Under the pieces are notes generated by a model. That model made no database searches and was not told the origin of the DNA. It was given only the letters and a program-made list of their open reading frames with translations. The position numbers and the translations under genes are program-made. From Candidatus Saccharimonadota bacterium (lineage in GTDB: Bacteria; Patescibacteriota; Saccharimonadia; UBA4664), in contig JACAFG010000005.1 in the NCBI GenBank assembly GCA_019352195.1, forward strand, positions 27,582 to 91,581: a stretch of 64,000 nucleotides of DNA. The letters are read 5' to 3'. Of the stretch, positions 672 through 48,072 are shown piece by piece. Positions within the stretch are counted from its first letter, which is position 1, and each line of letters starts with the position of its first letter.

Positions 672-714
672 TGGAAGAAATTATATCAACAAAGCGAGCC
701 AATGGGCTAATTAG

Positions 715-1665: not shown

Positions 1666-1726
1666 AGCTAGCCATTATTATACTCCAAGCACAAGCACGT
1701 TGCCAAAATTCTTATTTTGGATCAAA

Positions 1727-2515: not shown

Positions 2516-2623
2516 ACAGTTGTCCAAGCTATAAGTTTGGTAGTGTTGTAAAGATAGCTTGACCCAGTCATTCCGCTTATGTTAATTTGTTTACATAAAG
2601 GGTAAGGGTTAAAAAGGGAAAAT

Positions 2624-3784: not shown

Positions 3785-3854
3785 GGACGTCCGGCCGACG
3801 GGTCGGCCGGCATAGATGATCCCGATATTACGACCCCCCTTAAACCCCAACTCG

Positions 3855-8064: not shown

Positions 8065-8591
8065 TTCGGCTGTTCATATAGTCAGCGATGGGGCATAGGA
8101 CGGAGCTATCGACACCAATTCAAAAAATTAAAATGTCATAAGCAGCAATCTTGTCAATATCTAAATCTGAATTATCATTCAACATAATGAGCAAAAATCA
8201 ATATAAATTGTGTAGCATTTTTTTACAACTATATTGAGTTCGGCAATTTAATCTTAATTTTCATGTTGTAAATTGTGCTTTTGCAAAGTATATAAACGCT
8301 TGTAATTGAATTCTGTTTTGAGGAAGTTGCTATTTAATGCATTAAGAGTACTCCAATTGTAGGGCCTAAGTATTTCACCGTCTCCATGATTTTATAGCAA
8401 CATAATTGTTTGATTATTTCAAAGTCTATTATTAGGGTACTCATGCCACGCCTGTGTAAAAAACTCACATAAAGGCTTGGTTCTTGTTTGGGAGTGTGTT
8501 TGTTACGCGTAGATGCGGCTACATATGGGCATAAAATGTGGGGCAAAATGGGGTAGTGATAAATTGCTTAGCAAAGGCATTAAAATCGCCT

Positions 8592-8667
8592 ATATGGCTT
8601 GTGTTTTCAGATATGGCTTGTGTTTTTAGATAATGCTTGTGTTTTCAGATATGGCTTGTGTTTTCAG
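8592..8667 (+). repeat. 4 tandem copies of a 19-bp unit ATATGGCTTGTGTTTTCAG
   Basis: Direct reading gives units at 8592-8610, 8611-8629, 8630-8648 and 8649-8667, with 1-2 nt variation. They sit inside an AT-rich ~600-nt intergenic region (8065-8683). The last unit supplies the -35 of the downstream promoter. Confidence 0.8.
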
Positions 8668-8684
8668 ATAAAAACGCTTATGAT
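8656..8684 (+). promoter_or_regulatory. sigma70-like promoter TTGTGT-17-TATGAT of the giant surface-protein gene
   Basis: -35 TTGTGT 8656-8661, 17-nt spacer, -10 TATGAT 8679-8684. The same promoter with the same AAACGCTTATGATT spacer/-10 recurs at 14886-14914. Downstream is GGAGA-3nt-GTG. Confidence 0.5.
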
Positions 8685-8713
8685 TGGAACAGTATTTTTG
8701 TGTTTGGAGACCT

Positions 8714-14700: not shown

Positions 14701-14794
14701 TGTGGCCCAAAATACCAATGGTACCGTAGCGGCAGGCTGTGCTGTGTACACGGCATGTAGTGGGTCGTTGTTTACTACTTTTGCGCCAAGATAA
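8714..14794 (+). CDS. giant secreted cell-surface protein with LVIVD beta-propeller repeats
   Basis: The ORF track gives 8684..14794 (2036 aa) from a TTG that lies upstream of the predicted transcription start site (TSS). The likely start is GTG 8714, preceded by GGAGA, giving MSRLWLLKLNKRP... plus a hydrophobic core and ASA cleavage site. Seven tandem ~40-aa LVIVD-type repeats (YVQGRYAYV...IVDVSNP) lie at ~12890-13600. The protein is T/S/G/A-rich, with GIGTTSPAANLDV tail-fibre-like motifs. Confidence 0.8.
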   Translation: MSRLWLLKLNKRPAITRIYTALALAGLFWVGLITLNIPTASATGAAGIYSTINYQGRLLTSTGAVVPDGTYNMEFQIWQDGNGCVTGCTSANASTNNGGTLKWTEDYVYGTGSPDNRVTVKNGYFSVSLGSITSLSSVNFNWDTNYLTTNIGNTSTAATFSVASGDGYMIPFKRLSANPYALNSSQLGGLTSSQYTQLGQGIQGAATTGTTALIGLNQTSTGTILDLQKGGADVLLIDSTGSTLFRPTTDSAIALQVQKAGTTTTVFTVDSSNSRIGIGTAAPAYAVDAVGSINASTSLKVAGTDVCTTAGCTADPASAIKNQNSAQQTSANFWISGSGRADTSILTPGLDTATGVALAIGTTNATSINLNESTNVATGKTFTTNGSGFDATGKLGIGTTSPAANLDVHSTATTGNALSVTANNLTTGIAVNVSSSPTAGTGGALINASQSGTITTSGTVGGSLLNVQRSITANVSAASAITFDSKTTSSSYTWSHTVASQTNRILIVECDSSSAATSATYNGVAMTLIGTITNPSNPSALTFWKLLAPATGTHAVTMDQNCNVGAAIGGVSSSWYNVDQTTGTGTFSSNDAAANNVSVSVASLFGQVVIDGADAYLNGYSSWTNIPGSGQTMLLNPSLSYDSVGASYKAGAATSTTMTWNFSAGAGVHIYIGGFALIQAPTGSAVNLVGSIVNLGSNCTNTAGGCADNSSILSLNQQYASASGAVATLQNAGTGDMVDFLNGSSSILSGFDSSGNLFFNNSTFKSTLSTGTLSAPRSITLPDASGTVCLSVGNCSAAGGYIVNGTSLQASSNFHISGSGTADTSLLTPTLDTASASALSIGVTAATTIGLGRSGQTLNIGSDAINLNNGYLNVAGTTSATNSKASLAGTVASSTTSQYGLDNEVAFNPQVAITGAVYGSVNIPNLSGSALAVSSLQGFTAGVKETGGVGNFTGTVTDAIGLNITSPQITGGGNKFTTYTGVDVGANSINGGNTSGILTNNGIIVESISAGAGSGGTVNNYGINLAQPSGSGTGTTNNYGINIQGAGGGSNNYSIYNQSTAASYFSGNVGINQLTTGSYNLNVNGTANFATSINVPSITSSAGLTLATTGTNGLTADTGGAGTIKVGAANANSILIGTATTAQASGATGTIFIGNTNSTIVGISGQTVGVGSPSGGALFITGGGVNVQGASALAMLFNVTNTSNKTILHVDSSANVVSLGQTSNLTGQLQFSNATNAFTSTIQGNTAATASYTSILPGAVGSAGQCLTVASVASTTQTLGYSACGGGSYVTLQGVTPGTADTGNLNITGTGIFATQITSPIVKTTNLRPTADGTSAIQFQNAAGTTNVLTVDTTNSRINVGTNGTPTGQLYVSGTLPTAAAGSVSTGSAPNNIYVQGHYAYTANYSSSTLGIYDVSNPAAPFSVGSVSISIATNVYVQGRYAYVTSQGSGGIVIVDVSNPSSPISVGSVATGSNPKSIFVQGSYAYVVNNGASTISIVDVHNPASPTIIGSTATGLNPSSVYVQGRYAYVINNTASTLSIIDVNNPASPSSVGSVATGSNPNAVFVQDNYAYVTNNSGAGMSVIDVSAPSAPSSVGTVATGTSPNGIYVQGRYAYVANSGSNTIGIYDVGGAYTQQLEAGGAQLGMLAVDGNSTLAGDASVQGGLQVGQSVQIGGDAGINGGLSVGGSASFDGPVQVGSSLTDTTQVNLQLDSTSLFADSGTCSTTTNQGALYYNTNTNAIRSCVGGAWEDVITTSGLGLVLFGIVPDGVATTGVGDLAGAGGYNSGPCKVYMSGTANIIVWNSCTAYSSGRKVAVAAGTATVSSSTSVFQNLCINTSGVAALVGTANATETTAGLFPAFSPSAPILCLATIKTATVANKVAAIYDTRVYTTDDKTIATIATTTGLGSMVTNNGTLGRYAPTSAVTNSIMGVVVAYSGTVSTATPNAIIVTYGPVAIKGTGTSGTIAQMIEWGAANGYATTVAAATTATNPYTYAGVAQNTNGTVAAGCAVYTACSGSLFTTFAPR

Positions 14795-15863: not shown

Positions 15864-17499
15864 ATGCCAAAGGTCGTTCACTCCACGCCTCTTCGTCCGA
15901 AAAACCGATTTAGCTCATCAGTAGCTTCCTTATGCGCAGCAGTTTTAGCTGCTATTGGCATTTATGTCGTGGCTGGCAGTCATGCTGCCACGGACGGATT
16001 ATATCTTACTCCCGCTAATGCTTCAGTTGAAGTTGGCCAAACGGTAACGGTGTACGCCGATTCGGGTTCGGTGCCAGTGAACGCAGCCCAAGCTAACTTG
16101 TCATACGACCCAGCTCTCCCGCAATACGTTAGCTTTGATAATACCGGCACCCAGCTGCCACTCGACGCGCAGCCAATTGTTGGGACGCCAACTACCGGCA
16201 GTCTGCAGATTGTTCATGCCACGCAGGGCGGGGCCACACCACCGTCGGGAACAATTCTTTTGACGACGCTCACGTTTAAGGCATTGGCCGGATCGGGCTC
16301 AGCGGCCATTACCTTTGGATCAGGCTCCGCAGTTTACGCTGCGTCCGGTTCAAGCAACATTGTGACTTCTACTGGTAGCTCGACGATCGCCCTTACTTCA
16401 CCGGCAGCTACGCCTACTCCAACCGTAGATCCAACCGCCACGCCGACTTCAACACCGACTAAAACTCCAACCCCGACTCCGACGCCTACGCCCACACTGG
16501 CCGCCGCGCCAACGACAGCCCCCGCTACGCTCTATCTGTCGCCTGGCACCGGTGCCGTTGTATCGGGAGCAGCTTAAAGTTGCGGTTCGCCTAAAAACGA
16601 CTACGCCGGTTAACGCGGTCCAAGTAACACTTGGCTATCAGGCCTCAAACCTCAACTTTGACTCGATCTCGACCGTTGGGAGTGCCTTTGCAGTCACTGC
16701 TCAAGGTAATGGTGCTGGCGGCGTAAATACCATAGTTCGATCTATTAGTGGCGGCGGTACGCCGGTCACGGGCGATGTCTTGGTAGCAACGGTCACCTTT
16801 GTAGCCAAGTTATCTGGTACTACCGCGGCGATTAAATTTGCCCCCAGCAGCATGGTGCTTACGGCAGCCGACAGCAAAAGTATCTTGGCTACACCCGTGA
16901 GCGGATCATATGCCTTATTGGCACCTGTTACCCCGGCTTCCACGTCCGCTCCAGCACCAACTACGGACACCGTAGTTACCCTGCCTCCGTCGGGCACGGG
17001 CGTTTCGGTTCCGGTATCGGGTGCCATCACCGTTAAAACTCCAGCTACTGACAGTAATTCCAGCGTAGCGTATCAGCTTGACGGTAAGAGTATCAGTTCG
17101 CCAACCATTGATACCACCGAACTCAGCAATGGTACTCATACCGTTACCGGCGTTGTCGCCAGTCCTAATGGCACGCGCCAAACCGTCACGCAGCCAATGG
17201 CTGTCAGTAACGATCTGTCGGCATGGCAGATGACGCGAAACACAATCGTGGCCGCCTTTGGCGGTAGCTCGACGGTGGCAGTTAGCACTATCGTGATCCT
17301 ACTCTTCATCATGATCGGCGGGATTGGCTTCGTCATCCTGTGGTCCCATTTTGAAGCCAGCGCAATGCAAAAGCGCTTGCTGAGCCAGCCAGAAGTTCAC
17401 ACGCCTGAAATTACGAACGATGCGAACTTGGTCATGCCCCAGTCTCCGTCTGCCGATGATAATGACTCCGACGATTCCAGCCCCACCGTTAACCTATAG
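15864..17499 (+). pseudogene. cohesin-like-domain membrane surface protein, reading frame interrupted by a 1-nt frameshift near 16568-16572
   Basis: ORFs 15864..16577 and 16552..17499 together are collinear with the intact paralog 17623..19671. The frames switch between ...AVVSG and QLKVAVRLKTTTPVNAVQ. The paralog reads ...SVANGTKLTVGIRMKTASLVNSVQ at the same place. Confidence 0.5.
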
Positions 17500-17622
17500 C
17501 CCATCAACTTCGATCTGATGTTGCCTCGTTGTGTCAGTTACTTCGCAGGGTCTAAAATCTGTTGTAATAAGCATAACTGTGATAGCATAATCTGAAGAAT
17601 GCTTTAAAAGACTCTTAAATTT

Positions 17623-19671
17623 ATGCCACAAGTTACCCCGCATTCATCTGCGTTTCGGCCCGCGCACCGTTTTAGTGCTTCGCTTGCATCTATTTGCGCG
17701 GCTGTCTTAGCTGTCATTGGTGTGTATGCGATTGCGGGGAGCCATGCCTCAACGAGCCAGCTTTACTTATCACCAAGTAATACCTCGGTTCTCAATGGCC
17801 AAAACGTAACCGTGGTGGTGTACGCTAACGCCGGCTCGGTGCCCGTGAACGCGGCGCAGGCTAACCTGTCCTACAACCCCAGTCAGTTGCAATACGTGGG
17901 TTACAGCAATGCCGGCAGTTTGCTTCCTCTCGACGCGCAGTCAGCCTCGGGTACCCCCAACACAGGTAGTTTGCAGTTTGTGCGCAGTACTCAGGGCGGT
18001 GGTGGGGCTCCGAGCGGTACCTTTATCGTCTTGAGCGTTACCTTTAAAGCCGTCGCCGGCTCTGGTACGGCGGCAGTAACATTTGGCTCGGGCTCGGCGC
18101 TGTACGCAGCGTCTGATTCGAGCAATATTGTTACCTCTACCGGTAGCTCCACGATTGGGTTAACCTCACCTGCGGTACCGACGCCCACTCCGACTCCGGC
18201 CGCAACACCGGCTCCCGCAGCTACGCCCACGCCCGTGTCCGGCAAAACAACTACCCCTACTCCTGCATCCCCAAAAACCGGCGCGACCGCCAGCGCACCC
18301 AATCCAGCTGTGGTAGCGGCAGCTGGTACCGCAGCTCTGTATTTGTCACCTGCCAGCGGTAGTGTGGCAAACGGCACCAAACTAACCGTTGGCATTCGGA
18401 TGAAAACCGCTTCACTGGTAAACTCCGTTCAGGCGAATCTAACCTACCAGACATCCGGACTAACGTTTGATTCGATTTCTGGCGACGGCAGCGCCTTCCC
18501 GCTGTCAGCCCAGGGTAATGGCGGTAACGGTACGGTAACCGTTGTTCGTGCTACCAATGGTGGGGGAGCGCCCGTAACGGGCGATGTCCTGATGGCCAAC
18601 ATTACCTTTATCGCGACCGCAAATTCGGGCACAGCCACGATCAAATTTGGGGCGGGGAGTGTGGTCCTGACAGCGGCCGATAGTAAGAATATTTTGGCAA
18701 ACCCGGTTGGGGGGACCTATTCGCTGATCAGCGGATCAAACTCGACTTCGGGCGCAGTTACTGCCAGCCATTTTGATGGCACCACTATTACGTTGCCGAC
18801 TACTGGTACTGGAACGCCGGTTGCGGTATCTGGCACCGTCAACTTACAGCCAAACGGGGTCGCCAGCGGTGAAACGGAGACCTATCAAATTGACGGCCAC
18901 AGTATTGGTTCGACCAAAATCAACACCACCTATCTCACCAATGGTACGCATATCGTAACGGCTATTACAACTAAGGCTGACGGGAGCAAAGCTACCATTA
19001 CGCAACCGCTGTCGGTGAATAACGCCCTAACTAGTTGGCAGATGTCGCGTAATACCGTGGTAGCTGCGTTTGGCGGCAATTCGAGCGTGGCCTTGGGCAC
19101 GGTAGTGACTCTGTCCTTACTCCTAGCTGCAGCGGTCGCTTTCCTGGTACTACGACCCCATCTTGAGGCCAGCCAAATTCAGAGCCAATTTGTTCATCAC
19201 GAGGCGGCCACTGGTCCAACAGGCTTTGGAGTGCCCAACGTGGTAATGCCGGCCGGCAGCGAACCGGCTTCACCGCTCGTTGACGTTAAGGTTTCGGCTG
19301 AGCCCAAGCCCACTGAGCCCCAAGTTGTCGAGCCGAGCCCAGAAGCCCCGGTGACAATTCAGCCAGCTGTAGAGACACCGTCTGCAGCCGAGCCAAGTAC
19401 GGACACGACCGAGTTGCCAGCTCCAGTCAAAACGAGCGATCCAATCGAAGAAAGTAACGTCAAAACCGATGAAACAAAGCCGGCCGATTCAGCCGAGGTG
19501 AAGTCTGAGACCGAAGCTGACGCGACGAGTGGTAAGCCGGCAGGTGAGACTGTTCCTAGCACATCAGACGATATGGCACCGGCCGCCGACGAAGCTGCCC
19601 CGGTAACCGAGACGAAGCCGGACTCAAGTGACGGTTCGACCCCGATTACCATTAATAAGCCCAAAGTTTAG
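17623..19671 (+). CDS. cohesin-like-domain surface protein with N-terminal anchor, C-terminal TM and long acidic tail
   Basis: 682-aa ORF, paralog of 15864..17499. It has a PT-rich linker, a TM (VVAAFGGNSSVALGTVVTLSLLLAAAVAFLVL), then an E/P/T-rich tail. Confidence 0.7.
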   Translation: MPQVTPHSSAFRPAHRFSASLASICAAVLAVIGVYAIAGSHASTSQLYLSPSNTSVLNGQNVTVVVYANAGSVPVNAAQANLSYNPSQLQYVGYSNAGSLLPLDAQSASGTPNTGSLQFVRSTQGGGGAPSGTFIVLSVTFKAVAGSGTAAVTFGSGSALYAASDSSNIVTSTGSSTIGLTSPAVPTPTPTPAATPAPAATPTPVSGKTTTPTPASPKTGATASAPNPAVVAAAGTAALYLSPASGSVANGTKLTVGIRMKTASLVNSVQANLTYQTSGLTFDSISGDGSAFPLSAQGNGGNGTVTVVRATNGGGAPVTGDVLMANITFIATANSGTATIKFGAGSVVLTAADSKNILANPVGGTYSLISGSNSTSGAVTASHFDGTTITLPTTGTGTPVAVSGTVNLQPNGVASGETETYQIDGHSIGSTKINTTYLTNGTHIVTAITTKADGSKATITQPLSVNNALTSWQMSRNTVVAAFGGNSSVALGTVVTLSLLLAAAVAFLVLRPHLEASQIQSQFVHHEAATGPTGFGVPNVVMPAGSEPASPLVDVKVSAEPKPTEPQVVEPSPEAPVTIQPAVETPSAAEPSTDTTELPAPVKTSDPIEESNVKTDETKPADSAEVKSETEADATSGKPAGETVPSTSDDMAPAADEAAPVTETKPDSSDGSTPITINKPKV

Positions 19672-39499: not shown

Positions 39500-39716
39500 T
39501 TGACGGTCCTTTCGATCGATGTAAACCAGCACGACAGAACTGCCGATTAAGTTATCATAGCACAAAATATGGTAATAGTCAACTATTCGCATCACCCATT
39601 GTTGCTTAGGTAAGGGAGATCTGGTATGCTTGCTCGGTCAAATCAACGAACGAAGCAACCTAACCGTAATCCTCCCGCTCGGGTGGTTAGGCGAAGCCGA
39701 AAGGACACAATTTAAA

Positions 39717-40439
39717 ATGGCAACTGCCAACCTCAAAGAATTATTGGAGGCCGGAGCTCACTTCGGTCACCAAACCCGTCGATGGAACCCTAAGATGAAA
39801 CAATACATCTACGGTGCTCGTGGTGGTGTACATATTATTGACCTCGTTCAAACGGGTCCATTGCTGGACGCTGCGATTAAATTTGTTCATGACACCACGG
39901 CCGGTGGTGGCAAAGTACTGTTTGTAGCTACCAAGCGTCAGGCAGCTGGGATTGTAAAGGCAGAGGCAGAAGCTGCTGGTATGCCGTTTGTAACCGAGCG
40001 CTGGCTTGGCGGTATGCTGACCAACTTCCGAACGATCCGGACGCAAGTTGCCCGCCTCAAGAAAATTGAAGCAGGGCTTGAGAGTGGCGATTACGCGACT
40101 AAGTACAACAAGAAAGAGCAGCTGGACTTTACCAATGAAGCTGCTCGCCTCAACCGCATTTTTGGCGGCATCAAGAACATGGACGCGTTACCAGCGGCAA
40201 TTTTTGTAGTCGACGCTCCCAAGGAAGACCTGGCTATTGCTGAGGCTCGTAAACTGGGTATTCCGGTGGTTGCTATGGCCGATACCAACGCTGACCCCGA
40301 TCTCATCGACTATCTGATTCCCGCGAACGATGATGCCATTAAGACGGTTAAGATTATCACTCACCTCATTGCTGAGGCCGCGTCTAATGGTAACCAAATC
40401 GCCTCAGTTCGCGCCAAAGAAGCTGCTGACCAAGCGTAA
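39717..40439 (+). CDS. rpsB: 30S ribosomal protein S2
   Basis: MATANLKELLEAGAHFGHQTRRWNPKM, with an AAAGGA SD. The ORF-track N-terminal extension is taken as not translated. Confidence 0.9.
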   Translation: MATANLKELLEAGAHFGHQTRRWNPKMKQYIYGARGGVHIIDLVQTGPLLDAAIKFVHDTTAGGGKVLFVATKRQAAGIVKAEAEAAGMPFVTERWLGGMLTNFRTIRTQVARLKKIEAGLESGDYATKYNKKEQLDFTNEAARLNRIFGGIKNMDALPAAIFVVDAPKEDLAIAEARKLGIPVVAMADTNADPDLIDYLIPANDDAIKTVKIITHLIAEAASNGNQIASVRAKEAADQA

Positions 40440-40511
40440 TTTTCCGATCACAAAACTATAAGACGTAAATGAGATCTCAAATTAAGTTTGGGATGATAGA
40501 GAGGAGATAGT

Positions 40512-41099
40512 ATGGCTGTTTCAATTGAAGATATTAAGAAGCTCCGCGACGCTACGGGCGCCGGGATGATGAAGGCCAAAGAAGCATTGGAGGCTGCCAG
40601 CGGCGACTTCGATAAGGCGATCGAACACTTGCGCAAAAGTGGTGCGGCATCGGCGGCTAAAAAGGCTGACCGTGAAGCACGCGACGGTGTTATCGAAGGC
40701 TACGTTCACTCCGGTCGCATCGGTGTACTCGTGGAAATTAACTGTGAGACCGACTTTGTGGCTCGCACTGAAGATTTCAAAGGCTTTGCCCGCGATATTG
40801 CGATGCACATTGCCGCCGCTAACCCAACCTACGTAACCCCGGCCGAAGTCCCCGCCGACGTTATCGAAGCCGAAAAGCGCGTCTACGCCGAGGACACCAA
40901 GGGCAAGCCGGAGGAAATTGCTGCCAAAATTATTGACGGTAAGCTGGCCAAGTTTTACGAAAACGTTTGTCTGGTCAAGCAGCCCTTTGTCAAAGACCCG
41001 GACAAGAGCATAGAAACGCTCACCGGCGAGCTGGTTGGTAAACTGGGTGAAAACATCGTTATTCGCCGCTTTACCCGCATGGAGCTCGGTCAGCTCTAA
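40512..41099 (+). CDS. tsf: elongation factor Ts
   Basis: IKKLRDATGAGMMKAKEAL signature. A short 195-aa form. Confidence 0.9.
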   Translation: MAVSIEDIKKLRDATGAGMMKAKEALEAASGDFDKAIEHLRKSGAASAAKKADREARDGVIEGYVHSGRIGVLVEINCETDFVARTEDFKGFARDIAMHIAAANPTYVTPAEVPADVIEAEKRVYAEDTKGKPEEIAAKIIDGKLAKFYENVCLVKQPFVKDPDKSIETLTGELVGKLGENIVIRRFTRMELGQL

Positions 41100-41153
41100 G
41101 GCAAAGCTAGACGGATGAGGGGTAATTAACCCCTAAAATCTCTGAGCAACCCT

Positions 41154-41183
41154 CAAAAACACCGCTTGTGGCGGTGTTTTTGG
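41154..41183 (+). terminator. bidirectional terminator after tsf
   Basis: AAAAAC-ACACCGC-ttgtg-GCGGTGT-TTTTTGG. Confidence 0.6.
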
Positions 41184-41227
41184 TATAACGGGCGCCTTGG
41201 TGATAACTTATGCCTAGCAGCAACGAA

Positions 41228-41254
41228 GCCCCACAGCGGGGCACGCCGTGGGGC
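41228..41254 (-). repeat. variant copy of the GC-rich palindromic element (GCCCCAC-13nt-GTGGGGC)
   Basis: It has the same 7-bp stem and the CGAAGCCCCAC flank as the five main copies. It lies downstream of the 41283..41615 ORF. Confidence 0.6.
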
Positions 41255-41282
41255 AGCAATGATGAGGAAGTGCACAGATTGG

Positions 41283-41615
41283 TCAGCTCCCGCGAACCTT
41301 CGAAATTCGCTGAACCGGACCGGTCACAAATGGGAAACTATATTTCAAACTGAACAGCCACATTGGCTCGCCGCATTTGATGACGGTTGCTGCAGGGTGG
41401 TAGGGATCATGATGCGGGCAGAGGAGCTTGACGTCGCTTGCAAATGGAAAGGTGGAAAAGGGGGTTGTCCCAAATGCTTCCCACGTAGTGGCGAGTCTCC
41501 AAATCTTGATTGTGTCGTCATCGCTAAGCTGTATGACATAGCTGCCACTTACGCGGACCCCGGTATCTATTTGATACCTGCCGCAGCCGACGGTGGTGTC
41601 GAGTTGGTTCCTCAC
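41283..41615 (-). CDS. hypothetical ORF with WD40-repeat-like fragment
   Basis: 110 aa. The motif SGSYVIQLSDDDTIKIWRL resembles a WD40 blade. It may be a remnant. Confidence 0.3.
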   Translation of the reverse strand: MRNQLDTTVGCGRYQIDTGVRVSGSYVIQLSDDDTIKIWRLATTWEAFGTTPFSTFPFASDVKLLCPHHDPYHPAATVIKCGEPMWLFSLKYSFPFVTGPVQRISKVRGS

Positions 41616-41683
41616 GTGAGGGCTCTTTTCTATGACGAGGGTTTTGTTTTGGATATAGTGACCCCAGCACGGTTATTTGGCAA

Positions 41684-41720
41684 GGCGAAGCCCCACTGGC
41701 AATGGGGTCGCCGGTGGGGC
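41684..41720 (-). repeat. GC-rich palindromic element copy 1 (terminator-like)
   Basis: GCGAAGCCCCACTGGCAATGGGGTCGCCGGTGGGGC lies immediately 3' of the A1 stop. Confidence 0.75.
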
Positions 41721-41727
41721 AGGATGG

Positions 41728-42447
41728 TCAGTGGGACAGATTGTAGTGCCGGATGAGCGCGCCGGCCAGCGCAGTGAGGACCTCAGTGTCGCCGGTGCTC
41801 AATTGGTGCCCCCCGTTTCGCAACTGGCGCAAGTGGACAGCAATCGACTGGGGCGTGTAGCCGATGAGGTCGCCGAGCTGAGCCAAGCCGCAGGCTTTCA
41901 ACAGCTCCAGTTTACGCCTCGAAATATCGATGCGTGGGTGCTTTATGCGGAACATGTCGTTGCAGGCTCTCGTCAGCGTGATGGCCCGAAACTGGTCCAA
42001 CGGCACATAGATAGCGCCGTTGATGGTGGGGTAAGTGAACCAGTCGGCGCGGTTACCGGCTGCCGAACCCAGTTCCACCCCAGCCCGCGAGAGCAAGCCG
42101 AGGATGATGTTGACGCGGTTGACGCCCAGGCCTCTGATATCGGAAAGCTCCTTACGAGTGATCAACGCACAGTCGGCCAGGGAATTGATCCACAGATGCT
42201 CCTTGAGAGGGCACACCGCCGTGAGCTCCTCACCCTGGAGCTGGCGGCTCAGATCGAGGAGCGGCATGTCAGGGTCAAGCTTAGGCTTGGGCCCGGCCGA
42301 ACTGAAGGCCATCACCCTGTCGTCCACCGCGGCAAAGTAGCGATTGGAGCCATTAGCCGTGAGCACGAGGCGTGGGTCGGACAAAAGTATTTGTGTGACA
42401 GCGTCGGTGTCGTCGGGCTTAACCTCGAGAACAATTCGTGTGCGCAT
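41728..42447 (-). CDS. family A protein 1: tandem alpha-CTD-like helix-hairpin-helix domains
   Basis: 239 aa. The segments ADCALITRKELSDIRGLGVNRVNIILGLLSRAGVELG and ISRRKLELLKACGLAQLGDLIGYTPQSI both match the RpoA C-terminal domain pattern (LSxRxxNxLKxxxIxxIGDL...EL...G...I..L..RG). Confidence 0.7.
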   Translation of the reverse strand: MRTRIVLEVKPDDTDAVTQILLSDPRLVLTANGSNRYFAAVDDRVMAFSSAGPKPKLDPDMPLLDLSRQLQGEELTAVCPLKEHLWINSLADCALITRKELSDIRGLGVNRVNIILGLLSRAGVELGSAAGNRADWFTYPTINGAIYVPLDQFRAITLTRACNDMFRIKHPRIDISRRKLELLKACGLAQLGDLIGYTPQSIAVHLRQLRNGGHQLSTGDTEVLTALAGALIRHYNLSH

Positions 42448-42484
42448 GGGAGCGCCTCTCTGTGAGGAACGATTTTGAAATCAG

Positions 42485-42518
42485 GTTATATCAAAGCAAA
42501 ATAATCCTCAAAAGTCAA
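42485..42518 (-). promoter_or_regulatory. promoter of A1 (extended -10 TGaTATAAC; TTGACT upstream)
   Basis: Minus strand reads TTGACT...TGATATAAC. The -35/-10 spacing is 22, so it is probably extended-minus-10 driven. Confidence 0.4.
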
Positions 42519-42531
42519 TATTTGCGCCCAA

Positions 42532-42568
42532 GACGAAGCCCCACTGGCAATGGGGTCGCCGGTGGGGC
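42532..42568 (-). repeat. GC-rich palindromic element copy 2
   Basis: Identical 37-mer lying 3' of the A2 stop. Confidence 0.75.
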
Positions 42569-42576
42569 AGGGAAGA

Positions 42577-43293
42577 CTAGAGCTTGATATCGCAGTGGGA
42601 GGCAATCTGCCACAAGAAGATGGCTACATGGGGCGGCATATTTTGGCCGTTGGCTTGCAGCTGCCGCGAATTGATAGAGTCTATGGTCTGGCCGCGCAGA
42701 TCTCCCAGCGTACGCAAGTCCAGGGCCGCCAGCGTGGTATCGCTGATGTAGACATCGGGGCGATGCTGATGGTCGAGGGTGCATTTTACCCCGATCCAGC
42801 TGTCAGCCCACCTGAGCGGGATGGCACGAAACTGAGCTGGGGGGACCAATTCATCCAGAAATTTGTAGCCGCTACGCTGGTACTTGGCCAGCGAACCCAC
42901 GGTTACATGCGCTTCTTCGAGCAGGTCGATCAAAGCCTGGAGCTTCATTGGGCCCATACCCAGGAGACGGCCGAGCTCCGCTTCGGTGACGAAGGAACAG
43001 TCGGCGAGCCGATTAATCCACAAATGCCGCTCCATTAAAATGGGGACGGCACTGGATTGGTGGCCGCTCAGGTGGGGCACGAGATCGCTGAACGGTACGT
43101 CGGCCAAGTCGTCGACATAATTATCGACCCGAATATTGTTTTGGGCGCACAGACGCAACAGCTGCGCGCTCAAGCTCTCCTTGCCTAAGGGCGGAGCCGG
43201 CGTTCCTTCCGCCGTGGCTTGGATAGCGGCGCACAATCTCAGGACGAGACGGAAATCAATGTCGGCGGCTGGATTTACCACGGTATTGGTCAT
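42577..43293 (-). CDS. family A protein 2 (paralog of 41728..42447)
   Basis: 238 aa. It shares HLWIN[SR]LADC...GLG and PxxQFRAI blocks with A1. Confidence 0.7.
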   Translation of the reverse strand: MTNTVVNPAADIDFRLVLRLCAAIQATAEGTPAPPLGKESLSAQLLRLCAQNNIRVDNYVDDLADVPFSDLVPHLSGHQSSAVPILMERHLWINRLADCSFVTEAELGRLLGMGPMKLQALIDLLEEAHVTVGSLAKYQRSGYKFLDELVPPAQFRAIPLRWADSWIGVKCTLDHQHRPDVYISDTTLAALDLRTLGDLRGQTIDSINSRQLQANGQNMPPHVAIFLWQIASHCDIKL

Positions 43294-43339
43294 GGCATAC
43301 TCATTTCAAGGTCAGAAGGGATAGGAAGGGAGTAGAAGT

Positions 43340-43368
43340 CTTATAACACTATATTATTCTTAAGTAAA
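43340..43368 (-). promoter_or_regulatory. promoter of A2, TTTACT-17-TATAAG
   Basis: -10 is the complement of 43340-43345; -35 is the complement of 43363-43368. Confidence 0.5.
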
Positions 43369-43383
43369 GAAATGATGGTCCAA

Positions 43384-43420
43384 GACGAAGCCCCACTGGC
43401 AATGGGGTCGCCGGTGGGGC
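43384..43420 (-). repeat. GC-rich palindromic element copy 3
   Basis: Identical 37-mer lying 3' of the B1 stop. Confidence 0.75.
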
Positions 43421-43439
43421 AGGGAACGAGCTAGAGGTG

Positions 43440-44003
43440 CTACTCGAACGATTCGGTATCAGGGTTAAAGGGGACGTAAGTCGTTCTCGCTGCCACGTAC
43501 GTAATGGGATCGAGAGGGTCGGTGATATGGGGTCCCTGCGCTTGCAGCATCGTGGTGAGTATCGAAATAGAGTTGAGCCAATCGTTGGGCACGAAGACGA
43601 TGCTCATATCGTCGTTGCCGCTATCGCGCCGGATAGCCTGTGCAAGCACTTGCATCTCCGCCAGATTCAAGGGATCGACCTGGCAGAAGGCGTCAACGAG
43701 AAACGCTTCGAGCGAGGTACCGAGGAGATCCCAAGTGATGTTCTTGCGGTTCTCGTGCCATAACTGCGCAGACGGTGCTTCGCCTATTCTCGTTTGGCGG
43801 TGATCGTGCAACCGCGGTCTGGTCATGCGGTCGAAGTACTCCCCGATGAGGGGATCATTGACCGCGACGAGGATCGCTACTTCGTGGCGTCCGTAGTTCG
43901 GATTGGTGAAGGTCCAAACTTTATTCACCGGACGAAGTTTGAGGAGCTCTCTGGCGAAGAGCTCAGACCTCATGAGCCGAGATACTTCCTGTTGGGGCGA
44001 CAT
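43440..44003 (-). CDS. family B protein 1 (unknown function)
   Basis: The ORF track gives 43440..44129, but its 5' part runs through the upstream element and promoter. The predicted TSS is ~44060. The start is chosen at MSPQQ (GGAGA-4nt-ATG, 44003). The alternative MTSGDP start is at 44021. The conserved C-terminus is FNPDTESFE. Confidence 0.65.
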   Translation of the reverse strand: MSPQQEVSRLMRSELFARELLKLRPVNKVWTFTNPNYGRHEVAILVAVNDPLIGEYFDRMTRPRLHDHRQTRIGEAPSAQLWHENRKNITWDLLGTSLEAFLVDAFCQVDPLNLAEMQVLAQAIRRDSGNDDMSIVFVPNDWLNSISILTTMLQAQGPHITDPLDPITYVAARTTYVPFNPDTESFE

Positions 44004-44066
44004 AGGGTCTCCAGATGTCATGGGGTGCAAAAGCCGTGGCCGGATGGTCATAGCTTGGTTATGGTA

Positions 44067-44095
44067 TTTATAACTTGAAATGCTAAAAAAGTCAA
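44067..44095 (-). promoter_or_regulatory. promoter of B1, TTGACT-17-TATAAA
   Basis: -10 is the complement of 44067-44072; -35 is the complement of 44090-44095. Confidence 0.6.
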
Positions 44096-44110
44096 TGATT
44101 GAGTGCAAAC

Positions 44111-44147
44111 GACGAAGCCCCACTGGCAATGGGGTCGCCGGTGGGGC
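44111..44147 (-). repeat. GC-rich palindromic element copy 4
   Basis: Identical core lying 3' of the B2 stop. Confidence 0.75.
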
Positions 44148-44157
44148 TGAGTGAAGG

Positions 44158-44733
44158 TCACTCGTGGTCCTCGAAGGAGGCGGTATCTGGATTGAAGCGG
44201 GCGTAGGTCAGGGCCGCCAGGTTGAAGGTCTCGGGTTCGAGTGGGTCGGTGATGGAATCTACTCCCAGTCGGTACAGCTTTTCTGTCAGCACCGAAACAC
44301 AGTCGAGCCAGTTGTTAGGCGCCAGAATGATGCTCATGTTGTGGTTGCCGCTATCGCGCTGCATAACGCCAGCCAGCTCCTGCATCGTCGCCAGATTCGC
44401 GGGCTCGATCTGGCAGAAGGCGCGGACGAGAAACGCTTCGAACGAGGTGCCGAGGAGATCCCAGGTGATGGTCTGGCGGTCCTCTACCCAATACCTATCC
44501 GACGTCAAGTCGTTGTATCGGGTGCGGCGGTGACGGTGAGCCCATGGCAGGGCCAGGCGCTTGAAGTACTCGTCGACCAGGCGGTCGCGGACCGATACGA
44601 GCATGGCCGTTTCCGGGTGTCCGAAGTTGGGGTTGGTAATCGCCCAAACTTTGATCACGGGGTCAAGCTTGAGCAGCTCTCTGGCCATGAGAGCAGGCCC
44701 GGTGAGCCGAGATACTTCCTGTTGAGTCGACAT
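44158..44733 (-). CDS. family B protein 2 (paralog of B1)
   Basis: The 5' UTR-start region ATGACATCTGGAGACCCTATGTCG is conserved at nucleotide level with B1. The protein shares WDLLGTS[LF]EAFLV and FNPDTASFE. The start is chosen at MSTQQ (44733); the alternative is 44751. Confidence 0.65.
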   Translation of the reverse strand: MSTQQEVSRLTGPALMARELLKLDPVIKVWAITNPNFGHPETAMLVSVRDRLVDEYFKRLALPWAHRHRRTRYNDLTSDRYWVEDRQTITWDLLGTSFEAFLVRAFCQIEPANLATMQELAGVMQRDSGNHNMSIILAPNNWLDCVSVLTEKLYRLGVDSITDPLEPETFNLAALTYARFNPDTASFEDHE

Positions 44734-44796
44734 AGGGTCTCCAGATGTCATGAGGTGCGAAAGCCGTGAGCGGGTGCTGACGGCTTGGTTATACAA

Positions 44797-44825
44797 TTTA
44801 TAACTTTAAATTGTTAAAATGTCAA
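44797..44825 (-). promoter_or_regulatory. promoter of B2, TTGACA-17-TATAAA
   Basis: -10 is the complement of 44797-44802; -35 is the complement of 44820-44825. Confidence 0.6.
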
Positions 44826-44840
44826 TGTTTTGGTGCGGAC

Positions 44841-44877
44841 GACGAAGCCCCACTGGCAGTGGGGTCGCCGGTGGGGC
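44841..44877 (-). repeat. GC-rich palindromic element copy 5 (one substitution, CAGT for CAAT)
   Basis: Lies 3' of the B3 stop. Confidence 0.75.
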
Positions 44878-44887
44878 TGAGTGAGGG

Positions 44888-45439
44888 TTACTCGTTGATG
44901 AGGAGGTACCGGGCGAAGTCGCCGGTGCCCGGGCGATAGAGCTGGGGGGCGTTGGCCGCGACGGAGAAGGCGCGGGCCTCGAGCGGATCGACCACCTCCT
45001 GGGTGGGCAGGCGGGCGTCGAGATGATCGGCGTTGTAGCGCCAGAAGGGTGCCACCAAGACGATGTCCAGGCGCCCGAGGAACAGGTCATCGATGAGTGC
45101 CGCGCCTTCATCGCCGTACTGCTGGTAGAGCTCACCGACGAGTTCTTCCCAGCGGATGTCAAGGAGGTCCCAGACGAGTTCGAGGCGGGTTTCGGGCGCC
45201 TCCGTGGTCCAGCTGTGGCCGTTGTCGTCGGAATCGGTATCGACGATGATGTACGGGACGGCCAGCCGTTCCATGTAGACCTCGGCGAGCTCGGGGGTGA
45301 CCTCGACCGCGAGGCGGGCCACGGCATTGTTGGCATCGTTCGGTGCGACGGCGACCCGGCAGATCTCGGTCACGCATTCGAGGCGAAACAGCACCTGGGC
45401 GGCCAGGTGCACGGTGGTGAGTTCGACGCTTGCGGGCAT
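44888..45439 (-). CDS. family B protein 3 (divergent acidic paralog)
   Basis: It shares WDLL..., the [LI]V[FL]V[PA][NP][DF]W block, and the C-terminal YRPGTGDF (cf. FNPDTESF). The start is chosen at MPASVELT (GGAG-6nt-ATG). The alternative MELLMPAS start is at 45451. The ORF-track start at 45550 lies upstream of the promoter. Confidence 0.55.
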   Translation of the reverse strand: MPASVELTTVHLAAQVLFRLECVTEICRVAVAPNDANNAVARLAVEVTPELAEVYMERLAVPYIIVDTDSDDNGHSWTTEAPETRLELVWDLLDIRWEELVGELYQQYGDEGAALIDDLFLGRLDIVLVAPFWRYNADHLDARLPTQEVVDPLEARAFSVAANAPQLYRPGTGDFARYLLINE

Positions 45440-45505
45440 GAGTAACTCCATGTTGTGACCAGGGTGCGAAGCTCGCACCAGTTGAGGGTAGAGCTTGATT
45501 AGGCA

Positions 45506-45534
45506 ATTATAACTATGTTGACACAATAAGTCAA
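45506..45534 (-). promoter_or_regulatory. promoter of B3, TTGACT-17-TATAAT
   Basis: -10 is the complement of 45506-45511; -35 is the complement of 45529-45534. It overlaps, face to face, a plus-strand TTGACA at 45518-45523 upstream of frr. Confidence 0.6.
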
Positions 45535-45615
45535 TACTATTTAACCACAACCGGCAACGATACGCCTCGTTGTGATAAAATTAGTGAGAATTTCAGCTAA
45601 TATCCGAGGTAACAA

Positions 45616-46176
45616 ATGGTACGACAAATTATTGATGGCGCCGATCCAAAAATGCAAAAAGCGATTGAGCACTTAGACTCGGAGATGACCTCGTTGCGAA
45701 CGGGACGAGCTTCGACGTCGCTGGTTGATAGCCTGATCGTTGAGGTTTACGGCGTGCCGCAGCCGCTCAAGGCCATTGCCAGTATTAACACGCCGGACTC
45801 GCGTTCAATTGCCATTACGCCTTGGGACCGGACGAGTTTGCCAATTATCGAAAAAGCCATCCGCGAAAACCAGCAGCTGGGGCTCAATCCGAATAACGAC
45901 GGTACGGTGATCCGCCTCAACATCCCTTCGATGACCGAAGATCGTCGCCGCGAAGTGGTTAAGAGCCTGGGCGCCAAAGTCGAGGATTGCCGCATCGCGC
46001 TGCGCAATATTCGTCACGATACGCTCGGTGAAGTTAAGAAGCTGGAAAAAGCTAAAGAAGCGACGCAAGACGACGTTAAATTTGCTGAAACCGAGCTCAA
46101 TAAGAAAATTGAGACGTTTCAGCGTAAAATTGAAGAATTGGAAGCGGCCAAAACCAAAGAGATTATGTCGGTTTAG
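45616..46176 (+). CDS. frr: ribosome recycling factor
   Basis: 186 aa, with typical RRF conservation (VIRLNIPSMTEDRRRE). Confidence 0.9.
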   Translation: MVRQIIDGADPKMQKAIEHLDSEMTSLRTGRASTSLVDSLIVEVYGVPQPLKAIASINTPDSRSIAITPWDRTSLPIIEKAIRENQQLGLNPNNDGTVIRLNIPSMTEDRRREVVKSLGAKVEDCRIALRNIRHDTLGEVKKLEKAKEATQDDVKFAETELNKKIETFQRKIEELEAAKTKEIMSV

Positions 46177-46237
46177 TCGACTGGCGCCGATTCTTTTGTT
46201 AGATTAAGGCGTAAGCAATTTACTGTAATAACATTTC

Positions 46238-46942
46238 ATGAGCTCACTTGCCCACAATCAAGACGTTCCTTACCATCTTGGCATCGTGCCGGATGGTAAT
46301 AGGCGTTGGGCGCGTGCCAACGGACTCACTGCCTTTGAAGGCCATCGCCGGGGCGTAGACGTGACGCGTGATATCGCAATTGCCGCCTATGAACGGGGTG
46401 TAAAAGTGCTGACATTTTACGCGTTTTCGACCGAAAACTGGCAGCGAACCCAAGAAGAGGTTGGCTATCTCATGGAGTTGTTTTTTCGCGTGATTGTCAC
46501 GGAGTATAAAGAACTTGAGGCGCGCAACGTACGTTTTCGCTTTGTAGGTCGCCGAGACCGTTTAAGCGCCAAAATGATTAAGGCGATTGATGATACCGAG
46601 GCGCGTACGGCGCACCTTAGTGAAGGCATGTTTGTGTTGTGTCTGAACTACGGGGGCCAGCAGGAAATTGCTGACGCCGCCGCGGCGCTCATCACGGCGG
46701 GGGTAGCCGCGCAAGACGTCACGCCCGAGCGCTTTGCTCAGGCATTGTATGCTCCGGATGTTCCGCCGGTCGATCTGATCATCCGGACCTCTGGCGAGCA
46801 GCGGCTGAGCGGTTTTATGCTGTGGCGCTCAAGCTACGCGGAGCTGCTCTTTGTCGATCAGCATTGGCCGGCCTTTACGGCCGGTGACCTCGACGCAGCG
46901 CTGGCTGAGTTTGCCGTTCGGCAAAGGCGTTTCGGGAACTAA
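46238..46942 (+). CDS. uppS: undecaprenyl diphosphate synthase
   Basis: HLGIVPDGNRRWA and the C-terminal RFGN motif. Confidence 0.9.
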   Translation: MSSLAHNQDVPYHLGIVPDGNRRWARANGLTAFEGHRRGVDVTRDIAIAAYERGVKVLTFYAFSTENWQRTQEEVGYLMELFFRVIVTEYKELEARNVRFRFVGRRDRLSAKMIKAIDDTEARTAHLSEGMFVLCLNYGGQQEIADAAAALITAGVAAQDVTPERFAQALYAPDVPPVDLIIRTSGEQRLSGFMLWRSSYAELLFVDQHWPAFTAGDLDAALAEFAVRQRRFGN

Positions 46943-46968
46943 GCATAATCGGGTACAATGAAACGTAA

Positions 46969-48072
46969 GTGTTTACCGTAATTATCATCATTTTGTTGTT
47001 CGCGTCGCTGGTGCTCCTGCACGAGCTGGGTCATTTCATTATGGCTCGGCGTAATGGGGTCGAGGCCGAGGAGTTTGGGGTTGGCTTCCCGCCCAAGCTT
47101 TATGGTAAGCAAATTGGCAAAACCTTTTACTCAATCAACCTGCTCCCGCTGGGTGGATTTGTGCGAATGAAAGGCGAGGATGCGGCCGATACTGAGCCGG
47201 GCTCGTTTGGTGCCGCCTCTTTTGGATCGCAGACCAAAATTCTGTTTGCTGGGGTAGTGATGAACTTGTTGACGGCAGTGGTGCTGCTTTACGTGCTAGC
47301 GCTGACCGGCTTACCGGGGCTGGGACCACAGTTTGAGCCAACTTTCTTGCACTCCACCTACGCGCAACCCAAGCAGTTGCTGTTGGTGGAAGTGGTGCCG
47401 GGTTCGCCGGCGGCACAGGCTGGCCTCAAGCGCGGTGATTACGTGTTGACGGCCAACGGCACGATGCTGACGACCGACGTCCAGCTGAGTGATTTTACGC
47501 GTAACCATGCCGGCGAAACGGTCAGTTTGGGCGTGAAGACCGCTAGCGGTACGCACGTGGCGCAGATTAAATTGTTGCCGCCCACGGCCAAAGACGGGTA
47601 TTTGGGCGTGAGTAGCCAGCAGATTTATAAACTGCGCTATGATCCGCTTCGCGCCGTCGTGGCGGCCGGTTACATTACGTTCGTTTTGTTGTGGGAAACC
47701 CTCCTCGGCGTCTTCTCGCTGTTTTGGCATTTCCCCAGTTTGATTGCGGGACTATTTGGGCATGGGGTGCCGGCCGCGGCCGAAGCGACGTCGGGCCCGA
47801 TTGGGATTGTCTTTATTCTCAAGAGTATCTCAACGCTTGGATGGTCGTACGTGGTGTTATTTATGGCAAACATTTCGGTGGCTTTGGCCGCGTTTAACAT
47901 TTTGCCACTGCCGGCGCTCGACGGTGGTCGCTGGTTTGTGCTGGCGGTCCAAAAGGTGACGGGACGTAAGTGGAGTGCTGATGCCGAAGCACGGTATCAC
48001 GCGGTTGGCTTCTTGTGTCTGATTGGGCTCATGGTGCTTATTTCGGTCTATGACGTCCGAAAGTTCTTCTAA
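46969..48072 (+). CDS. rseP: RseP-type site-2 zinc metalloprotease
   Basis: HELGHF zinc motif in TM1, an internal PDZ, and LPLPALDGG. Confidence 0.85.
   Translation: MFTVIIIILLFASLVLLHELGHFIMARRNGVEAEEFGVGFPPKLYGKQIGKTFYSINLLPLGGFVRMKGEDAADTEPGSFGAASFGSQTKILFAGVVMNLLTAVVLLYVLALTGLPGLGPQFEPTFLHSTYAQPKQLLLVEVVPGSPAAQAGLKRGDYVLTANGTMLTTDVQLSDFTRNHAGETVSLGVKTASGTHVAQIKLLPPTAKDGYLGVSSQQIYKLRYDPLRAVVAAGYITFVLLWETLLGVFSLFWHFPSLIAGLFGHGVPAAAEATSGPIGIVFILKSISTLGWSYVVLFMANISVALAAFNILPLPALDGGRWFVLAVQKVTGRKWSADAEARYHAVGFLCLIGLMVLISVYDVRKFF

Follow-up and report, generated by a model that had tools for sequence, protein, structure and literature searches.

Family B genes in the gap between tsf and frr

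We analyzed a 64,000-nt stretch of the metagenome-assembled genome of a Candidatus Saccharimonadota bacterium (contig JACAFG010000005.1 of assembly GCA_019352195.1), referred to below as the window. In it, the gap between the plus-strand genes rpsB-tsf (39630-41099) and frr-uppS-rseP (45616-48072) is filled by five minus-strand genes, B3, B2, B1, A2, and A1, of which three belong to family B, the subject of this study, and two to family A. B1 (43440..44003, minus strand) encodes 187 amino acids (aa) starting with MSPQQ (NCBI HJC99_04685) and has GGAG at 44009-44012. B2 (44158..44733, minus strand) encodes 191 aa starting with MSTQQ (NCBI HJC99_04690) and has GGAG at 44739-44742, while B3 (44888..45439, minus strand), with GGAG at 45446-45449, encodes 183 aa (MPAS...) and would encode 187 aa from an in-frame ATG at 45451. 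The window's proteins are deposited at NCBI as HJC99_04675-04690 and MBW4061834-42. All five genes of this island have a promoter-like site of their own on the 5' side and a hairpin on the 3' side.

An earlier reading of the DNA, made from the letters only (the original prediction), had described B1, B2, and B3 as tandem paralogs, and this was borne out by the significant mutual similarity of the three minus-strand open reading frames (ORFs). B1 and B2 shared 58% identity over 187 aa (tblastn E about 1e-67), and B2 and B3 shared 26% identity over 180 aa (BLASTP E=1e-08). Homology was seen only in the minus-strand frame, both among the window copies and toward four outside clusters, and the 64-kb window contained no further copy of family A or B. 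The C-terminal motif [FY][NR]P[DG]T.[SD]F was present in all three proteins as proposed (FNPDTESF, FNPDTASF, and YRPGTGDF). The other two motifs held for B1 and B2 but not for B3: WDLLGTS[LF]EAFLV was exact in the former two and differed in B3 (WDLLDIRWEELVG), and the MSI[VI]..PN[DN]WL block of B1 (DDMSIVFVPNDWL) and B2 (HNMSIILAPNNWL) was replaced by GRLDIVLVAPFWR in B3. From the shared motifs, B3 keeps WDLL, the conserved W of the second block, and the C-terminal P.T..F.

The conserved 5' leader reported for B1 and B2 was also recovered, with GGAGACCCTATG preceding both B1 (44012-44001) and B2 (44742-44731). The 154-nt intergenic regions 5' of these two genes were equal in length, contained no indels, and were 84% identical, compared with 70% for the coding sequences (CDS). 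The region upstream of B3 shared with them just the promoter and the AAYCAAGC motif. Synonymous divergence (dS, Nei-Gojobori) was 0.61 for B1/B2, with a ratio of nonsynonymous to synonymous divergence (dN/dS) of 0.53; the corresponding values were 1.03 and 0.90 for B2/B3, and dS was 1.40 for B1/B3. The original prediction had offered recent duplication or gene conversion for B1 and B2; the former is not supported, given a dS of 0.61, and values above 1 against B3. Because the duplication is not recent by this measure, the closely conserved leader and the near-identical hairpins point to selection, to concerted evolution through gene conversion or unequal crossing-over, or to both, and not to youth. 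B3 appeared to be the most ancestral-like paralog, since it has kept an acidic DTDSDDNGHSW loop and has a GC content at third codon positions (GC3) of 0.86.

Promoters, leaders, and start codons

Promoter-like sites close to the sigma-70 consensus were located on the minus strand at 44067..44095 for B1 (TTGACT-N17-TATAAA), at 44797..44825 for B2 (TTGACA-N17-TATAAA), and at 45506..45534 for B3 (TTGACT-N17-TATAAT), the last matching 11/12 consensus positions and giving the top score of an 8-kb scan. When both strands of the 64 kb were searched with the relaxed pattern TTGAC[AT]-N16-18-TA[TG]A[AG][TA], three matches were obtained, exactly the B1, B2, and B3 sites. The minus-strand leader of B1 (44004..44066) contains the family-specific AACCAAGC at 44053-44060 and a predicted stem-loop near its 5' end, and GGAGACCCT precedes the ATG. 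That of B2 (44734..44796) is built likewise, with AACCAAGC at 44783-44790, the 5'-proximal stem-loop AAGCCGU/ACGGCUU, and then GGAGACCCT, and that of B3 (45440..45505) carries AATCAAGC at 45493-45500. A short 5'-proximal stem-loop beginning in the AAYCA(R)GC motif was predicted for most family B leaders, and the whole B2 leader (z=-3.85) was the sole one whose predicted fold stood out statistically. The combination of a -10 box and AAYCA(R)GC occurred upstream of B genes only in 141.6 kb from seven loci. From these promoters we infer strong constitutive expression of the B genes.

The MS(P/T)QQ starts proposed for B1 and B2 were upheld by a GGAG located 5 nt upstream of each and by the NCBI calls, which are also of 187 and 191 aa. 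Longer ORFs beginning with TTG were rejected, as that of B1 would start at 44129, within the preceding terminator hairpin and upstream of B1's own promoter, and that of B2 at 44796, directly after the -10 box. The start of B3 is most likely the second ATG (45439), because it is preceded by GGAG-N6 and was chosen by gene callers, whereas the first ATG (45451) has no such site.

The 34-nt hairpin repeats

The hairpin CCCCACCGGCGACCCCATTGCCAGTGGGGCTTCG follows all five island genes, and hence members of two unrelated families, with four copies identical and the fifth matching at 33 of 34 positions. The copies, all on the minus strand, lie at the B3/B2 junction (44843..44876, the 33/34 match), the B2/B1 junction (44113..44146), the B1/A2 junction (43386..43419), the A2/A1 junction (42534..42567), and after A1 (41686..41719). 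These five copies fall within 41.7-44.9 kb, and the other 60 kb of the window contain none (none expected by chance); confined to the island in this way, they do not show, within the window, the dispersal of repetitive extragenic palindromes or miniature inverted-repeat transposable elements (REP/MITE). A variant hairpin, GCCCCACGGCG-UGCCC-CGCUGUGGGGC followed by CUUCGU, lies at the tsf-proximal island end (41228..41254, minus strand) and has the same outer stem and tail. A weak, apparently decayed hairpin-like copy was recognized by alignment at the frr-proximal end, just upstream of the B3 promoter (45544..45573, minus strand).

The predicted fold consists of a 7-bp and a 5-bp stem with a CCCCA loop, and the 71-nt contexts had energies of -22.6 to -30.8 kcal/mol. 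The hairpin flanks formed two subtypes, one at the two B-B junctions and the other at the three A-side junctions, and the repeated module would comprise the hairpin together with the promoter. The exact 34-mer was found zero times in GTDB genomes, and a degenerate 23-base hairpin pattern zero times in viral contigs and zero times in metagenome contigs. Rfam gave nothing at gathering scores; the matches to sX13 (RF02232; best 27.4 bits, E=0.025, against a gathering threshold of 50 bits) were sub-threshold and driven by the C-rich loop of the hairpin.

The Logan assembly of SRR11551193, which is from the same sample as the window, breaks inside the hairpin at 44113-44146 (the end of L001 corresponds to window position 44118). 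The contigs L002 and L004, which carry B homologs from outside the window, likewise end within about 50-105 nt after the homolog, which suggests that short-read assemblies are fragmented at B cassettes by repeats or allelic bubbles.

Family A and the surroundings of the island

A2 (42577..43293, minus strand; 238 aa) is an orphan cassette gene unrelated to family B and has its own promoter. Its paralog A1 (41728..42447, minus strand; 239 aa) is 36% identical to it. Kinship of families A and B was rejected (hhalign probability 0.1%). No family A homolog other than A1 and A2 was found in 5.8 billion proteins and no match in PDB, and the matches of A1 to RpoA-CTD/helix-turn-helix-like entries of the libraries were weak, sub-threshold, and at noise level. 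GC3 was raised in this family as well (0.71-0.77).

At the tsf side of the island, 630 bp (41100-41727) contain no called gene and have an exact hairpin copy at one side and the variant hairpin at 41228-41254 at the other. An uncalled 110-aa ORF with a GTG start (41283-41615, minus strand) lies within them and shows no similarity to A or B, and no extra A or B copy or pseudogene was detected in 41100-41727 by tblastn. The gene-less stretch 41255-41685 may be a decayed sixth cassette. In bacteria, pyrH often sits between tsf and frr. Here the island occupies this slot (41100-45615), and pyrH was not seen within +/-10 kb either. The whole window has the character of core chromosome, with genes for ParAB, ATP synthase, MreBCD, and tRNA synthetases among others, and no integrase, transposase, or other recombinase was detected in any ORF scanned across the 64 kb. 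A second NCBI assembly and a Logan contig were 100% identical to the window; they are therefore regarded as the same data and not as independent confirmation. At 90% identity, the protein collection contains no close relative of the source genome that could show an empty tsf-frr site.

Family B is rare and matches no known family

The original prediction had called the B proteins unrecognised, and searches with single sequences and with all members were in agreement with this: Pfam, NCBIfam, PADLOC, and PHROGs returned noise only, with no match to the first three at E<=1 beyond that level, and the profile had no match among PDB sequences. In a word-indexed search of 5.8 billion proteins, no sequence other than B2 and B1 was retrieved. 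When 1.84 billion representatives at 50% identity were searched exhaustively with hmmsearch, the result was six entries, namely the B1/B2 cluster, B3, and the outside proteins P0004-P0007 (E-values 1.9e-12 to 1.7e-05), to which P0008 was added by profile search. None of these homologs carries a name or a Pfam domain, and the outside ones sit on metagenome contigs. A protein-guided locus search revealed no family B relative in 185,579 GTDB species genomes, and in metagenome contigs the same approach returned only the already known L005 contig. No homolog was found in 50,697 phage records or 72,556 plasmid records.

Protein properties and predicted fold

AlphaFold2 models of B2 (7 sequences; predicted local distance difference test, pLDDT, 78; predicted template modeling score, pTM, 0.75) and of P0005 (8 sequences; pLDDT 81, pTM 0.79) had the same element order, alpha-beta-beta-alpha-beta-beta-alpha-alpha-alpha-beta-alpha-alpha-beta-beta. 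Most members have a net charge of -14 to -25 and a pI of 4.2-4.7, B1 and B2 being just mildly acidic (-7), and no transmembrane (TM) segment or signal peptide was predicted. The residues invariant in an alignment of eight sequences (A, L, V, V, V, Y, R, P, E, L, W, and F) are mostly hydrophobic. According to these models, family B is predicted to consist of soluble, mostly strongly acidic alpha/beta proteins of about 190 aa that have no conserved catalytic residues. The beta3-beta4 turn reads D-x-D-D-N-G in B3 and the outside homologs and is a basic loop of the HRHRRTR type in B1 and B2.

Foldseek, which had been recommended as a check, gave no confident assignment to a housekeeping family, and neither PDB nor BFVD yielded a match at E<=0.001. 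Its top matches, ANT(4')/KNT and the MNT antitoxin 7ae9_F, were non-significant (E>=0.6). The nucleotidyltransferase motifs hG[GS] and [DE]h[DE]h are absent from the eight-sequence alignment, and there was no match to Pfam NTP_transf. The resemblance of the models to this fold, being below significance, is thus taken as a lead only. The traits that B proteins share with immunity proteins (small, non-catalytic, cytoplasmic, hypervariable, and present as tandem paralogs) are not specific to the latter.

Loci outside the window, empty sites, and a probable switch of alleles

The outside homologs share one build: TTGACA-N17-TATAAT, 4-5 nt, AATCAGC, a 50-60-nt leader, GGAGG, the CDS, and a GC hairpin. 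The promoters of L002 and L007 deviate from it (TTTGCA ... TATAGT), and the hairpins are ordinary terminators unlike the 34-nt hairpin of the island. The neighbors are a LysM-CHAP hydrolase and glucokinase for P0005 (L002) and P0004 (L007), PBP1A and PIN-TRAM/RadA for P0006 and P0008, and DUF3048/DPBB_1 and FKBP for P0007. The PBP1A gene upstream of B encodes an enzyme with Transgly and Transpeptidase domains and is followed by its own terminator. Homologs next to polymorphic toxins or phage genes, for which the original prediction had advised looking, were absent from the contexts examined. In the window, its statement that no toxin gene is adjacent was correct, as tsf and frr flank the island and no toxin gene lies in the neighborhood.

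At L003, L004, L005, and L015, a B cassette is located between PBP1A and the PIN-TRAM gene. At L016-L020, L024, and L025 just 50-74 bp with one terminator lie between PBP1A and the PIN-TRAM gene, which represents an empty site, and RadA or RecG at these loci falls into the same 90%-identity cluster as in the cassette carriers. Family B is therefore accessory and absent from close relatives.

P0005 (L002) and P0004 (L007), both from JGI sample 3300066484, were 46% identical as proteins and about 60% as DNA (dS 0.68). In contrast, about 97 nt upstream, comprising the promoter and leader, were 98% identical, and 108 nt downstream, comprising the terminator and the glucokinase promoter, were 100% identical, the change-over falling at the start and stop codons. 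The glucokinase promoter follows directly after both, and in another sample P0005 is followed by a gene at the same spacing. Given these shared flanks and the same 3' promoter and spacing, the simplest reading is that P0004 and P0005 are alternative alleles at one locus.

Contig L002 also carries two tandem paralogous genes for predicted membrane proteins (361-1411, minus strand; 173 and 171 aa) with a GC3 of 0.80-0.84 at a contig mean of 57% GC, a second case of GC3-rich tandem accessory genes in a B-carrying genome. Next to this pair, at 1650-2278, lie a PIN gene and its small upstream partner. Weak matches to PycTM (Pycsar effector) were noted about 15 kb from the empty B site in L024 (21595-22031) and L025 (20091-20525), in variable regions rich in small hypothetical genes.

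Evolutionary rate and composition

Across eight comparisons, seven within family B and one between A1 and A2, dN/dS was 0.53-0.99. In a pair of strains 2.3% apart, B differed by 6 nonsynonymous and 5 synonymous codon changes, against 4 and 61 in three neighboring genes (Fisher p=3e-4). GC3 of the B genes was 0.69-0.91 compared with 0.46-0.71 in neighboring housekeeping genes, and within the window 0.69-0.86 compared with 0.52-0.67. Given a GC3 of just 0.52-0.61 in rpsB, tsf, and frr, all of which are highly expressed, translational selection is an unlikely cause of the high values in B.

Other tandem paralog families in the window were not enriched in GC3. One comprises four tandem paralogs of 352-386 aa (1370-5947, plus strand) that have no Pfam domain, 29-58% mutual identity, and a GC3 of 0.49-0.61. 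Another comprises three adjacent paralogs (15864-19671, plus strand), the first with a cohesin domain and the third (682 aa) with repeats of the same unit. A gene for a 2036-aa protein with LVIVD repeats (8684-14794, plus strand) is preceded by a sharp GC dip at 8001-9000 (0.41, compared with a window mean of 0.54).

Interpretation and alternative explanations

Taken together, we consider it very probable that the B genes are real and form an orphan family of autonomous, accessory, fast-evolving cassettes that are replaced allele by allele. The array, with its three B and two A cassettes, may owe its growth to unequal recombination between the hairpin-promoter repeats, which would be kept near-identical by concerted evolution and by selection as terminators. 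Between strains, cassettes could be swapped by homologous recombination in their flanks. Such exchange is plausible because Saccharibacteria are naturally competent (PMC10187176).

As for function, the immunity or anti-defence role raised in the original prediction is a reasonable guess that would gain indirect support from the accessory distribution, the allele replacement between near-identical flanks, the high dN/dS, and the strong acidity of proteins lacking catalytic residues. B proteins might bind and neutralise a variable foreign protein without catalysis, in an immunity-like or antitoxin-like manner. The target could be, for example, a basic toxin or an effector of host, competitor, or phage origin, and the exposed beta3-beta4 loop, which carries acidic residues in most members but basic ones in B1 and B2, would be the likely contact site. 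Actinobacterial hosts have been described to restrict Saccharibacteria with secreted Esx effectors, and no epibiont counter-measure is described in that report (PMC13622651, preprint). Esx effectors are therefore a plausible selective agent, although nothing in our analysis ties B to Esx. Read as one statement, the cassette model together with an immunity-like function has a probability of roughly 0.35, and we rank the immunity-like function above each of the rivals discussed below. Several observations weigh against it. No toxin, secretion, phage, or defence gene and no conserved partner was found beside B in four independent contexts, and PADLOC and the Pfam immunity families (Imm*/SUKH/SMI1 and others) gave no match. 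High dN/dS and rarity would also fit relaxed constraint, and the distinct family B sequences, about eight, are too few for site-wise selection tests. Expression, transcript ends, and terminator function have been read from the sequence alone, and CUUCGUCUU, just after the hairpin stem, makes a poor U-tract. The allele reading of P0004 and P0005 comes from short metagenome contigs of one sample, for which a collapsed tandem pair keeps some small probability.

Some features that suit an immunity-like protein would also suit a highly expressed, acidic small protein that blocks a DNA-binding enemy or host system (for instance restriction enzymes that transforming DNA encounters, or phage-related factors) and not a toxin. 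A net charge of -14 to -25 on a protein of about 190 aa, the lack of catalytic residues, moron-like autonomous cassettes of atypical composition, and fast family evolution agree with such a DNA mimic. We regard it as unlikely, since no homolog was found in the phage and plasmid records, PHROGs, or BFVD, there is no prophage or mobile-element context, and B1 and B2 are mildly acidic with a basic variable loop. The dN/dS of 0.5-1.0, the extreme rarity and frequent absence of the family, and the ease with which open frames arise in this GC-rich DNA, as its long antisense ORFs show, could instead be explained by young or decaying lineage-specific ORFs that are near-neutral, held open by high GC, and of no important function. 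However, at a dS above 1 the frames are still intact, motif blocks are conserved, and the AlphaFold folds are confident and in agreement; the promoter, leader motif, and Shine-Dalgarno sequence are kept in every member across genomes; and the copy number has grown to three in the window, so this explanation seems quite unlikely. A degenerate nucleotidyltransferase-fold protein (compare MNT antitoxins, KNT, and RsfS) acting as a regulator, antitoxin, or ribosome-associated factor would account for the best Foldseek matches and for the position of the window island among the translation genes rpsB, tsf, and frr. It is improbable, because G[GS], DxD, and a conserved acidic triad are missing, no HEPN or other toxin partner is adjacent, and other family members lie away from translation genes.

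The gene neighborhoods raise the question whether B might chaperone or inhibit peptidoglycan hydrolases in the cytoplasm, or serve as an effector delivered to the host. A peptidoglycan enzyme adjoins B in 3/4 outside or independent contexts, namely a class A penicillin-binding protein (PBP; L003, L004, L015), a LysM-CHAP hydrolase (L002), or DUF3048 with DPBB_1 (RlpA-like; L008), and uppS is two genes off in the window. Envelope genes are common in small genomes, however, and the adjacency (roughly p=0.05, a rough estimate) was down-weighted as probably due to chance. The adjoining enzyme changes from locus to locus, a terminator and promoter set it apart from B, the PBP is equally present in empty-site genomes, and B proteins lack a signal peptide or TM segment, which makes a role in the cell wall or in attack on the host very improbable. 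Finally, the four identical copies and one single-base variant of the 34-nt hairpin, which bound five same-orientation cassettes of two unrelated families, the conservation of its loop as well as its stem, and the decayed and variant copies at the two array ends are what an integron-like or other site-specific system with the hairpin as recombination site would leave. This is the least probable of the explanations considered. No recombinase was found in the window, each cassette has its own promoter, the GTTRRRY/RYYYAAC core is absent, searches of viral, GTDB, and metagenome collections did not turn up the hairpin, and B homologs elsewhere end in ordinary, different terminator hairpins.

Saccharibacteria and other Patescibacteria are obligate epibionts in which most genes are of unknown function. 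Family B bears the signature of conflict genes (presence/absence, ancient alleles in near-identical flanks, high dN/dS, foreign-looking composition, and very strong autonomous promoters), which makes it a concrete candidate for a counter-measure role, and small, soluble proteins of this kind should lend themselves to expression and to screens for partners. A bolder conjecture, with little chance of being right in full, is that B, perhaps with the whole A/B island, constitutes a Saccharibacteria-specific counter-defence: constitutive neutralisers of effectors delivered to the epibiont by actinobacterial hosts or by competitors, with ancient allelic classes under frequency-dependent selection, swapped as promoter-gene-terminator modules by natural transformation without a dedicated recombinase. 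The cassette anatomy and population behavior are more solid and more interesting than any functional guess, and the build of the cassettes suggests a route for single-gene trade in a genome that has no visible mobile elements. If the family were functionless, it would merely be a tidy case of lineage-specific orphan genes.

Comparison with known systems

Integron cassettes are promoterless and carry attC R''/L''/L'/R' boxes, whereas the cassettes described here have their own promoters, a 34-nt hairpin without the GTTRRRY core, and no intI integrase. In contrast to MNT antitoxins and KNT/ANT(4'), B proteins have no GS/DxD motifs and no HEPN partner, and their structural scores are below significance. 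They also differ from the immunity genes of polymorphic-toxin and contact-dependent systems in that B is neither downstream of nor co-transcribed with a toxin gene and shows no homology to such genes.

The rAID-1 arrays of Bacteroidales combine orphan immunity genes with a biased GC content and with repeats between the genes (Ross et al. 2019; 10.1101/471110). The island resembles them as a same-orientation array of small genes that includes divergent paralogs, with skewed GC, intergenic repeats, accessory distribution, and fast evolution. Unlike rAID-1 arrays, which have a conserved XerD-family tyrosine recombinase at their head and recognisable immunity genes, the island has none in the 64-kb window. 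The island comprises only five cassettes, with a consensus promoter for each; B resembles no known immunity gene; and the host belongs to Saccharibacteria, with no known type VI secretion system context.

Phage morons, said to have been described by Juhala and colleagues in 2000 and by Hendrix and colleagues, are reportedly single genes of atypical composition that have their own promoter and terminator and are inserted between unrelated genes. Judged by its predicted signals, B is likewise a promoter-gene-terminator unit of atypical composition, but B cassettes lie between housekeeping genes (tsf/frr; PBP1A/PIN-TRAM), with no prophage and no phage homologs.

From Neisseria, a naturally competent genus, minimal mobile elements have been reported (Saunders & Snyder 2002, cited through PMC3787668). 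Family B would differ from them in bringing its own conserved promoter and leader and in the conserved flank of P0004/P0005, which reaches the start and stop codons. Exchange here is proposed from the comparison of loci. The likeness to the Neisseria elements would lie in the alternative states of a site, which at the B loci are empty, P0006-type, or P0008-type, and in P0004 against P0005.

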